A stretch of 56,336 nt of DNA from contig JBAZSG010000003.1 in the NCBI GenBank assembly GCA_041662585.1, positions 99,011-155,346 on the forward strand. The letters are read 5' to 3'. The notes beneath the pieces are model-generated. The model saw only the letters and a list, made by a program, of their open reading frames with translations. It did not search any database and was not told where the DNA came from. How positions within the stretch are numbered: position 1 is the first letter of the stretch; every line of letters starts with the position of its first letter. Of the stretch, positions 1 through 41,796 are shown in pieces. Source of the stretch: Patescibacteria group bacterium (GTDB lineage: Bacteria > Patescibacteriota > Patescibacteriia > UBA1558 > GWA2-36-10). The translations under genes and the position numbers were made by a program.

Positions 1-1562
1 CCAATAGCTCCTTGCTTTTTAGCCTCGGCTACGGACATTTCAGCAAAGCTGACAGTTAAACCAGTTTGTATTTGCTGATTGACAATATCTTCTACTTTTT
101 TTAGCTGCTCTAGAGTCATTGAGTCAGGGTGAGTAAAATCAAAGCGTAAACGTTCTTCATTGATATTACTACCACGTTGTTCTACATGATTACCTAATAC
201 ATTTCGCAAAGCTTGATGAAGAAGATGGGTAGCTGTGTGATAGCGAGTAGCCATGACGCTGTCATCAGCTAATCCACCTTTAAACATACCGGCGCTAGCT
301 GTTCTAGATAGTTCTTGATGTTTTTTAAACTCAGCTTCAAATTGAATTTTATTTATTTTGATATTATTTTCTTTGGCCAGTTCTTCAGTCATCTCTAATG
401 GAAAACCATAAGTAGAAAATAAAATAAAAGCAGTTTGACCATCAATATTTTTTTGTTTAGCAAATTCTCTAAGACCTTTGGTTAAGGTTTTGCCAAATTT
501 TTCTTCTTCTTTACTTAATTCATTAATTATAAAATTTTCATTTTGTTCCAATTCTGGATAATCAGTTTTATATAAATCAATAATTACTTCAGCTAACTCT
601 ACACAAAATTTATTTTGAATATTTATTATTTTGGCAAATCTAATAGCTCGTCTGATAAGCCTACGTAAAACATAGCCTTGGTCTTTGTTTGATGGAGCTA
701 TACCTCTAGGATCACCTAATATAAATACAGCAGATCTAATATGATCAGCAATTATTCTAAAAGCTTTTTTATCGTCTGTATATTTTTTATTGCTTAAATT
801 TTCTATTTTTTTAATTATTGGCTGAAATAATTCTGTAAGGTAGTTATCATCATAACCATTTAGTACGGCCAGTGTCCTTTCTAGGCCCATGCCAGTGTCT
901 ATATTTTTTTGCTTAAGGACTGTAAATTTTCCGTCTAGACTCTTGTCATATTGCATAATGACATTGTTCCAGATTTCTATCCATCTATTATCAGCTTCAT
1001 CAAAAATATCTGGTACTTTGTCTTGAGAGCTCCAAAAAAATATTTCAGTGTCTGGACCACATGGACCACTTTGTCCGGCTGGACCCCACCAATTGTCCTT
1101 TACTTTTTGAATCCTATTTTTATCTACACCCAAGTCAAGCCATATTTTTTCTGATTCACTATCATATTCAGGTACATCTTTGTTTCCAGCAAAAATAGAT
1201 ACAGCTAGTTTGGTTTTATCTAGTTTTAATATTTCAGTCAAAAATTCCCAAGAATAATTTATAGCTTCTTGTTTAAAATAATCTCCCAAGGACCAGTTGC
1301 CAAGCATTTCAAAAAAAGTATGATGAGTAGCATCGCCCACTTCTTCAATATCACCAGTCCTGACACATTTTTGGACACTTAGTAAACGCTGACCTTCTGG
1401 ATGTTTTTCCCCCATCAAATATGGTACTAGTGGATGCATACCAGCCGTAGTAAATAGGACGCTAGGGTCATTTTCTGGAATTAAAGAAGCGGAGCTTATC
1501 AAATGATGATTTTTACTCTGAAAATATTCAAAAAAATGTTTTTTTAATTGTCCGGAAGTCAT
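1..1562 (-). CDS. alaS: alanine--tRNA ligase, N-terminal ~520 codons (C-terminal part lies beyond the left edge)
   Basis: Not in the ORF track because it runs off the window. My minus-strand translation from ATG 1562-1560 reads MTSGQLKKHFFEYFQSKNHHLISSASLIPENDPSVLFTTAGMHPLVPYL. In frame at 1100-1041 it reads KDNWWGPAGQSGPCGPDTEI. Both are AlaRS class II hallmarks. Confidence 0.9.
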   Translation of the reverse strand, partial: MTSGQLKKHFFEYFQSKNHHLISSASLIPENDPSVLFTTAGMHPLVPYLMGEKHPEGQRLLSVQKCVRTGDIEEVGDATHHTFFEMLGNWSLGDYFKQEAINYSWEFLTEILKLDKTKLAVSIFAGNKDVPEYDSESEKIWLDLGVDKNRIQKVKDNWWGPAGQSGPCGPDTEIFFWSSQDKVPDIFDEADNRWIEIWNNVIMQYDKSLDGKFTVLKQKNIDTGMGLERTLAVLNGYDDNYLTELFQPIIKKIENLSNKKYTDDKKAFRIIADHIRSAVFILGDPRGIAPSNKDQGYVLRRLIRRAIRFAKIINIQNKFCVELAEVIIDLYKTDYPELEQNENFIINELSKEEEKFGKTLTKGLREFAKQKNIDGQTAFILFSTYGFPLEMTEELAKENNIKINKIQFEAEFKKHQELSRTASAGMFKGGLADDSVMATRYHTATHLLHQALRNVLGNHVEQRGSNINEERLRFDFTHPDSMTLEQLKKVEDIVNQQIQTGLTVSFAEMSVAEAKKQGAI

Positions 1563-1597
1563 ATAAATATAGTATATTTTAAGCTAAATTCTTATAT

Positions 1598-1626
1598 ATT
1601 TTAGTAAATTTAAGCTAAAAAGTCAA
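1598..1626 (-). promoter_or_regulatory. sigma70-like promoter for alaS (TTGACT-17 nt-TAAAAT)
   Basis: The minus strand reads TTGACT (1626-1621), a 17-nt spacer, then TAAAAT (1603-1598). This lies about 36 nt upstream of the alaS ATG and downstream of the RNA-gene terminator. Confidence 0.4.
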
Positions 1627-1641
1627 TCTAAAAAATTTTAA

Positions 1642-1910
1642 ATAAAAAAAGAAGCCCGACCTATGAGAGCGCCGGGCTTTTGGAGAACTACTGGGTTGCG
1701 TAGCCAGTTAAAGTTTAGTGGTCCGAAGGTGGACCACTGTGACACGAAAAAGGGGGTCCAATGAACACTGGAAAAAAGGGGTCCAGAACACTGGAAAAGT
1801 TTGCTGTCCTATACGAATGGACAGCTATACTACCTGCGAAGGCCAATAGTTCTCCAGAACTGCAATGAAACAAGAGTTTCAGTCCTGATAAATCAAGACT
1901 TAGACTCTTC
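1642..1910 (-). ncRNA. structured RNA of unrecognised class (~270 nt) with its own promoter and terminator
   Basis: G+C-rich patch in AT-rich DNA. A 13-bp closing helix (1855-1843 with 1694-1682) encloses four hairpins, including a tandem repeated hairpin motif. An upstream promoter and a downstream intrinsic terminator are present. The 76-aa ORF here (1715-1945) looks spurious. Confidence 0.55.
1644..1679 (-). terminator. intrinsic terminator of the RNA gene
   Basis: The minus strand reads AAAAGCCCGGC-GCUCUCAUAG-GUCGGGCUU followed by a U-rich tail (CTTTTTTTATTT). Confidence 0.7.
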
Positions 1911-1916
1911 ATAAAA

Positions 1917-1945
1917 AGCTTATAACAAAGTAAGAAACTTGTCAA
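1917..1945 (-). promoter_or_regulatory. sigma70-like promoter of the RNA gene
   Basis: The minus strand has TTGACA (1945-1940) and TAAGCT at 17-nt spacing. TATAAG at 15 nt is an alternative -10. Confidence 0.45.
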
Positions 1946-2033: not shown

Positions 2034-2732
2034 ATGCTTATTTTTGAATGGCTCTATCAAAAAATAGGGTACTTTGTCCATATATTCATACTAGAAAGTG
2101 CTGATAGATATATTGTCCGCTTTGACAATCATATGTCCAAACAGGGCAAACAATATATCAAAAAAGCTTATATTTTAGCTATGAAAATCCATTATGGACA
2201 GTACCGCGGAGATGGCGTTACTTCCTATTTTACCCACTGCTTGGATGTGGGCAATTATATCAGCGTCGAGCTTGGTATAAAAAATAATTGGGAAATTAAT
2301 GCTAGTGCTCTGCTGCACGACACAGTAGAAGACGGAGACATAAGTATAGATACGATCAAAAAGATTTTTGGCTCAGTAGTTGCTCATTGGACTGACTTGA
2401 TGACCAAGACAGAAAATAAAGCAACTTACATTCCTAGAATGTTAAGAGCCAAAATAATTGAGGTGTTTATCCTCAAGCTTAGTGATCGTGTCGTCAATCT
2501 ACGCACCTTAGGTATGAAGGCTGAACCAGAGTTTCAGATAAGGCAAATCAATGAAACAATAGAGATATTTTTGCCTATGGCAGACCTCTTGATTGATTTG
2601 ATTGCCAAATCTGAAAAATGGCAAAACAGAAAATACATTGGTCTTCACATCAAAGCTGCTTTGGAAAATCAGATACTTTCTTTTCGTGCCGAGTTTGGTG
2701 ATCGTATCATTTCTATCACCGATGACCACTAA
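2034..2732 (+). CDS. RelA/SpoT-type HD-domain (p)ppGpp pyrophosphohydrolase-like protein (small alarmone hydrolase type)
   Basis: HD hydrolase motifs are present: YFTHCLDVGNY, ALLHDTVEDG and LKLSDRVVNLRTLG (compare KLADRLHNMRTL). AGGAG lies 6 nt before ATG 2034. An alternative start is ATG 2133. G+C is visibly above the local background. Confidence 0.75.
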   Translation: MLIFEWLYQKIGYFVHIFILESADRYIVRFDNHMSKQGKQYIKKAYILAMKIHYGQYRGDGVTSYFTHCLDVGNYISVELGIKNNWEINASALLHDTVEDGDISIDTIKKIFGSVVAHWTDLMTKTENKATYIPRMLRAKIIEVFILKLSDRVVNLRTLGMKAEPEFQIRQINETIEIFLPMADLLIDLIAKSEKWQNRKYIGLHIKAALENQILSFRAEFGDRIISITDDH

Positions 2733-41405: not shown

Positions 41406-41796
41406 AAGGTCTAAATAGACTGAGATGATTGCTAGTTATAGTAATATAATTAGAGGAAAGTCCGAACACCAAAAAAAAGATAGTTGGTAACGCCAACCAT
41501 TTCTAATGCAAATTAGGAATAGGACAAGTGCAACAGAGAATATTACTCTACCCGAAGCTTTGTGCTAAAGGTAGTAAGGGTGAAAATGTCGAATAATTAG
41601 TCGACACGTTTATATGGTGACATATAAAAAGAGGTAAACTTCTATCTGGTGTAAAGCCAAATAGGTCCTGAGCATTGTCGAAGGACGGGTAGGCTGCTTG
41701 AGGTTACAAGCAATTGTAATCCTAGATAGATGATCATCATTTCGGTATTTATTTGCTGGAATACAGAATTCGGCTTATGAGGTCTATTTAGGCCTT
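41406..41796 (+). ncRNA. rnpB: RNase P RNA, bacterial type A
   Basis: The P4 strands are GAGGAAAGUCCGAAC and ACAGAAUUCGGCUUA. GGUAACGCC, GUGCAACAGAGA, AAGGGUGAAA and GGUAAAC are also present. The P1 pairing is 41408-41420 with 41782-41794. Confidence 0.9.

Follow-up and report, generated by a model that had tools for sequence, protein, structure and literature searches.

This locus raises the question of whether the G+C-rich gap upstream of alaS in a groundwater member of the Patescibacteria holds an RNA gene of its own and, if so, what kind of RNA it would encode. The window analysed here, i.e., the whole stretch of 56,336 nucleotides (G000:C3:99011-155346; labels of the type G000 stand for genomes and those of the type L011 for alaS loci), belongs to a genome of 0.94 Mb with 33.4% G+C. 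An original prediction had placed a stand-alone structured RNA gene of unrecognised class near one end of the window, on the minus strand. We found a promoter-to-terminator unit that belongs to no Rfam family, as had been proposed, whereas conservation and covariation in relatives were not found; the candidate therefore stands, in our assessment, as a well-founded prediction from one sequence and not as a demonstrated family. We give roughly even odds (about 0.5) to the reading that it is a functional, stand-alone structured small RNA (sRNA) acting in trans, and consider a lineage-specific RNA plausible.

Architecture of the predicted transcription unit

The candidate lies in an intergenic region of 470 bp, flanked by alaS (minus strand) and by an HD_4 hydrolase gene that diverges from it (plus strand; Table 1). 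Its G+C content is 0.42 to 0.45 across positions 1601 to 1900, compared with 0.27 to 0.33 in the flanks and 0.334 in the genome, and the described G+C-rich patch in A+T-rich DNA is indeed present (45% G+C at 1644 to 1945 versus 33% for the genome). On the minus strand, the unit begins with a perfect -35 hexamer, TTGACA, which is also found in the units that occupy the same position upstream of alaS in relatives. The proposed TAAGCT follows at the correct spacing of 17 nt, but matches the -10 consensus at only three of six positions (T-12, A-11 and T-7 are kept), so that the claimed promoter stands in its hexamers and spacing and is weak in its -10 element. The strong intrinsic terminator of the original prediction was recovered with its 9-bp stem and U7 run; it had been overlooked by the terminator scan because its loop exceeds 8 nt. 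We infer that the candidate is transcribed: RNA polymerase would start at ~1910 to 1912 and stop at the terminator, which would also insulate alaS.

Table 1. Coordinates of the candidate RNA, its neighbours and related structured units (positions refer to the window unless a genome or locus label is given)
Feature	Coordinates	Strand	Evidence or remark
-35 hexamer TTGACA	1940..1945	-	sequence
-10 hexamer TAAGCT, 17 nt from -35	1917..1922	-	sequence
Alternative extended -10, TGnTATAAG	1919..1927	-	
Predicted primary transcript, ~265-270 nt	1644..1912	-	ends inferred from promoter and terminator
5' hairpin: 6 bp, 3x3 internal loop, 8 bp, UUUA loop	1872..1909	-	-16.4 kcal/mol, z = -4
5' hairpin arms	1872-1889 / 1892-1909	-	repeat search
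Closing helix, 5' arm	1829..1859	-	perfect 13-nt core 1843-1855
Closing helix, 3' arm	1678..1708	-	perfect 13-nt core 1682-1694
Hairpin H1: GCUGUCC, 9-nt loop, GGACAGC	1803..1825	-	-12.1 kcal/mol, z = -5.4
Tandem 23/25-nt repeat UUUUCCAGUGUUC(AU)UGGACCCC(C)	1746..1798	-	pyrimidine-rich tails unpaired
Hairpin H3: AGUGGUCC, 6-nt loop, GGACCACU	1717..1738	-	-14.0 kcal/mol
Intrinsic terminator: 9-bp stem 1652-1679, 10-nt loop, U7 1644-1650	1644..1679	-	stem -15.5 kcal/mol
alaS promoter TTGACT-17-TAAAAT (neighbour, outside the RNA)	1598..1626	-	promoter scan; conserved with spacer in L011-L018
alaS, short AlaRS, 585 aa in genome (neighbour)	3..1562, continues past window edge	-	
HD-domain hydrolase gene, RelA/SpoT HD_4 type, divergent	2034..2732	+	PF13328, E = 2.5e-11
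Type A RNA, ~250-310 nt, directly upstream of alaS, G002 and G003	L013:2044-2357	-	
Type A RNA, second locus	L017:1159-1412	+	
Second upstream unit	L013:2396-2859	-	
Second upstream unit	L017:746-1114	+	
Second upstream unit	L014:952-1103		
Second upstream unit	L025:981-1136		
Second upstream unit	L023:2310-2468		
Second upstream unit	L021:403-577		
Double-hairpin element, G000	C2:103640-103760	+	
Double-hairpin element, G000	C2:146900-147000	-	
Double-hairpin element, G000	C5:25470-25580	+	
Double-hairpin element, G000	C5:104020-104130	+	
Double-hairpin element, G000	C6:37180-37290	-	
Double-hairpin element, sixth copy, alaS-upstream in another genus	L028 around 1120-1240	-	

The whole unit has a minimum free energy (MFE) of -101 kcal/mol (z = -9.0), a stability that none of 200 dinucleotide shuffles reached. 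Against mononucleotide shuffles, the candidate reached z = -8.0, compared with -3.7 for RNase P and -3.6 for transfer-messenger RNA (tmRNA) of the same genome, 0.1 to -2.5 for coding segments and a mean of -1.0 for 40 random windows. The sense strand, with its G-U pairs, is 6 kcal/mol more stable than the antisense strand.

The predicted fold consists of a 5' hairpin, a long closing helix with several hairpins inside it, and the terminator; the 5' hairpin, H1, H3 and the terminator are each stable by themselves (Table 1). The two perfect cores of the closing helix pair over 13 bp with one U-G pair; beyond them, the repeat search delimits 31-nt arms that are 74% complementary, giving an interrupted helix of ~21 bp in total. 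This helix pairs the ends of a core of 174 nt, for which the MFE, centroid and maximum expected accuracy structures, all from single-sequence prediction, give a four-way junction. The 5' hairpin, the 13-bp helix with its single G-U pair and the internal hairpins GCUGUCC/GGACAGC and GUGGUCC/GGACCAC were all found as originally described. Tandem repeat copies are present as well (1746-1760/1771-1785 and 1763-1775/1786-1798), but their proposed folding into two mini-hairpins did not hold: the 4-bp mini-hairpins have a pairing probability of ~0.04 each, and a composite hairpin at 1757-1795, in which the two copies pair with each other, is 5.7 kcal/mol more stable. Two more degenerate copies of the repeat motif were identified: one overlaps the closing helix on its 5' strand, and the other makes up the 3' strand, so that the RNA looks partly self-duplicated.

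If the candidate acts as an RNA, the 5' hairpin would come first in the transcript, followed by the 174-nt core, whose ends the closing helix (13 perfect bp, ~21 bp in total) would lock. Inside this helix, three to four hairpins would meet at a multi-branch junction, with the pyrimidine-rich linkers ACCCCUUUUUU and ACCCCCUUUUUCGUGUCACA left single-stranded. The helix might protect or stabilise the core, or mark an RNase III-type processing site. Action in trans could then proceed through these unpaired linkers or through the CCAGUGUUCUGG module with its repeats, which may bind RNA or protein, and the RNA would have been built partly through internal duplication of a 23-nt module.

To place the unit relative to alaS, the alaS-upstream regions of 30 genomes of the order were aligned by eye. 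The proximal alaS promoter, TTGACTTTTTAGCTTAAATTTACTAAAAT, is conserved through the genus, spacer included, and is kept where a protein gene abuts (L011) or where no G+C-rich unit exists (L015, L018). In tblastx, similarity to relatives within the 470-bp intergenic region is confined to this promoter. The TTGACT-17-TAAAAT promoter assigned to alaS is thus confirmed, and since alaS has its own conserved promoter, the upstream unit is a separate transcription unit, independent of alaS as had been proposed. T-box leaders tune aminoacyl-tRNA synthetase genes in Bacillota, and the candidate could likewise be a leader, attenuator or insulator that tunes alaS by terminator read-through or promoter occlusion. 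Its position directly upstream on the same strand, with 80 nt from terminator to ATG, and the recurrence of structured units at this position in relatives would fit such a cis element. We nevertheless consider it quite improbable, as the intervening alaS promoter is present even without an upstream unit, no T-box match was obtained, and the perfect 13-bp closing helix and the 9-bp terminator offer no evident antiterminator alternative.

Three observations concern alaS itself. The promoter and its spacer (TTGACTTTT-AGC-NAAATTTACTAAAAT; window positions 1563 to 1631) are conserved at the nucleotide level through the genus and beyond (100 nt upstream of alaS in L011 to L018 and L025). Most relatives also carry a small A+T-rich hairpin with a U-run in the alaS 5' untranslated region (UTR; e.g., AUUUACUGUAAAAACAGUAAAUUUUUU), which G000 does not; the UTR hairpin or the conserved promoter may serve as operator or attenuator if AlaRS regulates its own gene. 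Furthermore, the enzyme is a short-form AlaRS, its 585-amino-acid frame stopping soon past the editing-domain HxxxH motif without a C-Ala domain, and the short form occurs in all 40 relatives (578 to 626 amino acids in most).

Homologue searches and alternative readings of the region

The original prediction had named conservation or covariation in relatives as its test, and the searches of 85 order-level genomes, 110 alaS loci and phage records turned up no homologue. When the RNA was compared by BLAST with 40 relatives and with its own genome, only the sequence itself was returned, as it was by a single-sequence covariance model of the 174-nt core run on 38 genomes of the family and on 85 genomes of the order. 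With filters off, the core model gave a best E of 0.088 at 11 alaS loci, covering the closing helix only. No homologue was detected by nhmmer in the 110 alaS-upstream regions or by blastn in the phage records. The nearest genomes, with an AlaRS N terminus of 83% identity, are already too distant, and a metagenome scan for AlaRS yielded no locus above 64% identity and therefore no close relative for comparison. The candidate region is identical in the assembled contigs of two groundwater runs, which may be the source samples; with zero differences between them, there is no population variation to use.

A search for the pattern CCAGTGTTC-N0-2-TGGACCCC in 596 Gb gave 85 single, scattered matches, none in Patescibacteria, where ~200 were expected by chance; there was one viral match. 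These numbers bear on the reading of the region as a DNA-level site, in which palindromes (TCCAG-N4-CTGGA in two copies 23 bp apart, and AGTTCT-GG-AGAACT) would bind a dimeric protein or serve recombination between the divergent genes. The palindromes are short and perfect and lie about two helical turns apart, as such a site might require. However, they are 130 to 190 bp from the promoter of either neighbour, the motif has no further copy in the genome and stays at chance level in others, and a terminator, G-U pairs and 13 bp of complementarity over a long distance are sensible only for RNA. A DNA-level role is thus very unlikely.

The region also contains a 65-codon open reading frame (ORF), with an ATG at 1912, the predicted transcription start, and a stop at 1715, which the original prediction did not mention. 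It could represent a leaderless mRNA for an orphan protein of 65 residues, a view to which its openness from the transcription start and its single record by a gene caller lend something. Against it, G+C at second and third codon positions (0.47 and 0.38, versus 0.32 and 0.24 in the genes of the genome) is 2.4 to 3 standard deviations above the genome's genes, and codon usage prefers no frame in the region. There is no Shine-Dalgarno sequence, no Pfam match and no homologue among 5.8 billion proteins, and the copies of the tandem nucleotide repeat are read in two different frames. Judged from these sequence features, the region appears unlikely to be protein-coding, and the small-protein reading is highly doubtful.

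Several findings weigh against a functional trans-acting RNA. No homologue was found, and consequently there is neither covariation nor any sign of purifying selection. The weak -10 hexamer was not listed by the promoter scan, owing to its three-of-six match. The antisense strand also folds well (z = -7), and near-perfect helices together with internal repeats could stem from a functionless recent duplication or inversion. The sequencing runs that carry the region are the two groundwater DNA runs, with no RNA run among them. Complements of the C-rich linkers occur in 0 of 415 ribosome-binding-site windows, so that pairing of the linkers with Shine-Dalgarno regions is unsupported. Exact complements of at least 10 nt to the linkers were at chance level, with one 12-nt site (G000:C1:110674); RNAduplex target predictions were discarded, since their long duplexes are physically meaningless.

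Some of these points would equally be expected if the patch were young or decaying, functionless G+C-rich palindromic DNA, produced by local duplication and inversion or left over from an older RNA at this position. Whether transcribed or not, such DNA would fold stably merely because its arms were recently copied. This explanation would suit a candidate that stands as an orphan among 85 genomes of the order, carries one motif in four copies or variants, forms near-perfect helices and shows z values more extreme than those of bona fide RNAs of the same genome; it would also suit the turnover between species of what lies upstream of alaS (no RNA is found there in L011, L015 and L016). On the other hand, a perfect -35 hexamer, correct spacing, a full intrinsic terminator and consistent orientation would not be expected of it; its G+C content, 12 points above the genome, would decay unselected at 33% G+C; the G-U pairs favour one strand; and analogous units of sister species are under structural selection. 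We regard functionless DNA as unlikely, though as an explanation to be taken seriously, and give the functional RNA the preference.

Structured units upstream of alaS in related genomes

Unclassified G+C-rich units occupy the same slot upstream of alaS in L012, L013, L014, L017, L021, L023 and L025, i.e., at at least seven loci from at least five genera, always on the same strand and just upstream of the conserved alaS promoter. They run from a TTGACA-type promoter through a long closing helix to a terminator; z values range from -5 to -9.5, and none of them is known to Rfam. A within-locus comparison with other gaps was of a size and precision insufficient to reveal an enrichment specific to the alaS-upstream gaps.

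The units of the congeners G002 and G003, here called type A, are homologous to each other (70% identity over 126 nt). Compensatory changes are seen in each of their two long helices; in the P2 hairpin, both partners differ in 4 of 20 pairs. Of 39 genomes of the family, a covariance model of P2 recovers just these two, and its best score in the candidate region (4.1 bits, E = 7.3) is not a match. Type A resembles the candidate in slot, strand, TTGACA promoter, short leader, long closing helix, variable interior and terminator, and both share the short words UUGGACC and GGUCCACC. In contrast, their sequences cannot be aligned, and the second long hairpin domain of type A is absent from the candidate.

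Local alignment of the candidate to the slot units of relatives was not significant. The unit of G005 shares 17 7-mers with the candidate versus 6 expected, some of them collinear; 8-mers and alignment scores were not significant, and no homology is claimed. By eye, short end motifs are common to L021 and L023 and to L023 and L017. The pairing of HD hydrolase and alaS genes is also found in G003 and G020, with RNAs between them, and an RNA gene in this gap is therefore probably ancestral.

Taken together, the slot upstream of alaS holds fast-evolving or often-replaced structured RNA genes, and the candidate is its local, species-specific occupant. A bolder interpretation, which we put forward only tentatively and consider distinctly unlikely, is that the slot in this Patescibacteria family represents one ancient RNA gene, evolving so fast that its orthologues can no longer be recognised within a genus, or a hot-spot of repeated structured-RNA birth. 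If so, the RNA at 1644 to 1912 would represent the local form, partly self-duplicated, of an RNA with equivalent function; this RNA might regulate polymerase in a 6S-like way or be linked to the short AlaRS without C-Ala.

For the preferred reading, a trans-acting sRNA, the candidate would add one more uncatalogued, strongly folded RNA gene to the growing number from ultra-small bacteria in the Candidate Phyla Radiation (CPR). CPR bacteria have few protein regulators, and we know of no CPR small RNA with a known function. A single-species RNA without homologue or predicted target does not by itself pose a directly testable question yet. What is unusual is that related species repeatedly carry different structured RNA genes at this position upstream of alaS, a hint that at one locus RNA evolves very fast or genes turn over.

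Further structured units were observed in these genomes. Several relatives carry a second, further-upstream promoter-to-terminator unit of 150 to 460 nt (z of -3 to -6, none in Rfam; Table 1), and the two largest share the motifs AGGAGGG-AA and GAUGGUAG-ACCAUCAA. In G000, outside the window, a near-consensus promoter and a strong terminator delimit a unit of ~480 nt at G000:C3:45851-46340 on the plus strand (48% G+C, z = -7); with its Shine-Dalgarno sequence and ATG for a small basic ORF, it reads as a structured mRNA or dual-function RNA. A multi-copy G+C-rich double-hairpin element (CUCCCCUUAACAGGGGAG ... GUCCCCCUGUUAAGGGGGAUUUAGGGGGUUA, then a U-run) is present in five copies in G000, all outside the window, and has only weak, terminator-like matches in Rfam (Phe_leader, E = 0.002).

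Comparison with known RNA families

Rfam cmscan of the whole window detected just RNase P and one tRNA. As had been expected from its sequence, the candidate has no family match at gathering score or at E ≤ 10, where the region from 1500 to 2100 gave noise alone (best match, 17 bits). It differs from RNase P and tmRNA, both of which are located elsewhere: the RNase P gene lies in the window, as had been noted, at 41413 to 41793 (204.6 bits), and the tmRNA gene on another contig (G000:C5:26712-27098, 117 bits). Neither 6S RNA nor signal recognition particle (SRP) RNA was detected in the genome, which gave rise to the idea that the candidate is a diverged version of either.

Were the candidate a diverged 6S-type RNA, its 174-nt core would imitate an open promoter and thereby trap the RNA polymerase holoenzyme, with leader and terminator trimmed. 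The likeness lies in a core of ~175 nt whose ends are paired in a long irregular stem, which suits 6S dimensions, and in a stand-alone gene with a strong promoter, as is usual for stable RNA genes. Moreover, 6S RNA (RF00013) was undetected in all 40 genomes of the order (G000 and 39 relatives). The RF00013 model, however, finds 6S RNA in only 5 of 14 control genomes, so that missing matches in the 40 genomes do not show absence and its silence on the candidate, even at E ≤ 10, says little. The fold predicted from the single sequence is a multi-branch, four-way junction, in contrast to the rod of 6S RNA with its central bubble and apical stem. 6S RNAs are usually alignable within a genus, whereas the candidate has no counterpart in five congeners. 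A mismatch with 6S architecture had also been noted earlier by eye, and we think a 6S-type RNA improbable.

A highly diverged SRP RNA, either 4.5S or large, was considered because no SRP RNA was found in the genome or in 40 relatives; the candidate's length is near that of large bacterial SRP RNA. Neither RF00169 nor RF01854 gave a covariance-model match in the candidate region or anywhere in G000, and the region has no domain IV motif. The Ffh M domain (PF02978) and the SRP54-type GTPase (PF00448) are absent from G000, a six-frame motif search revealed no SRP-type GTPase (DTAGR occurs only in ribosomal protein L31), and none of the GKTT P-loop proteins is SRP-type. Since the genome lacks Ffh, the protein partner, as well as FtsY, this identity was rejected and we regard it as already refuted, in line with the mismatch originally noted. 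The 40 relatives show neither PF00448 nor RF00169, and PF00448 is missing from 120 of 121 sampled Patescibacteria. This loss is not new, as the absence of both SRP subunits from many CPR bacteria has been published (PMC8080830).

The resemblance to a T-box leader (RF00230) is one of position and outline: ~270 nt directly upstream of an aminoacyl-tRNA synthetase gene, several stems and an intrinsic terminator. The candidate is not such a leader because alaS keeps its own promoter, conserved through the genus, between the candidate's terminator and the gene; no antiterminator alternative is apparent, and RF00230 gave no match at E ≤ 10, in agreement with the original assessment. A retron msr-msd RNA was rejected, as the neighbours are alaS and the HD_4 hydrolase gene and no reverse-transcriptase gene is adjacent. 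A ToxI-like type III antitoxin was likewise rejected, the two repeat copies lying within a larger fold and the downstream gene being alaS.

RsaE/RoxS-type sRNAs of Bacillota base pair through C-rich motifs. The candidate shares with them repeated unpaired C-rich tracts beside small hairpins and a stand-alone gene with a terminator, but is much longer, more structured and without an Rfam match. Complements of its C-rich tracts (AAAGGGG and similar) are missing from all 415 ribosome-binding-site windows, and assignment to this type was not made.

A search of the literature, including Lui et al. 2021 (PMC8172020), returned nothing on small RNAs of CPR bacteria. The closest comparison is with the GC-rich intergenic region class of noncoding RNA candidates in A+T-rich genomes (PMC8632094), by which raiA, HEARO and ROOL were found. 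Those motifs were accepted for their many covarying homologues, whereas the candidate has neither a homologue nor a match to them. Like members of the class, it is a G+C-rich island with no credible ORF that has a promoter and a terminator of its own, is predicted to be densely structured and has been assigned no function. The RNA thus belongs to no described family, but its kind is familiar: an orphan, G+C-rich, terminator-bounded sRNA gene in a CPR genome.

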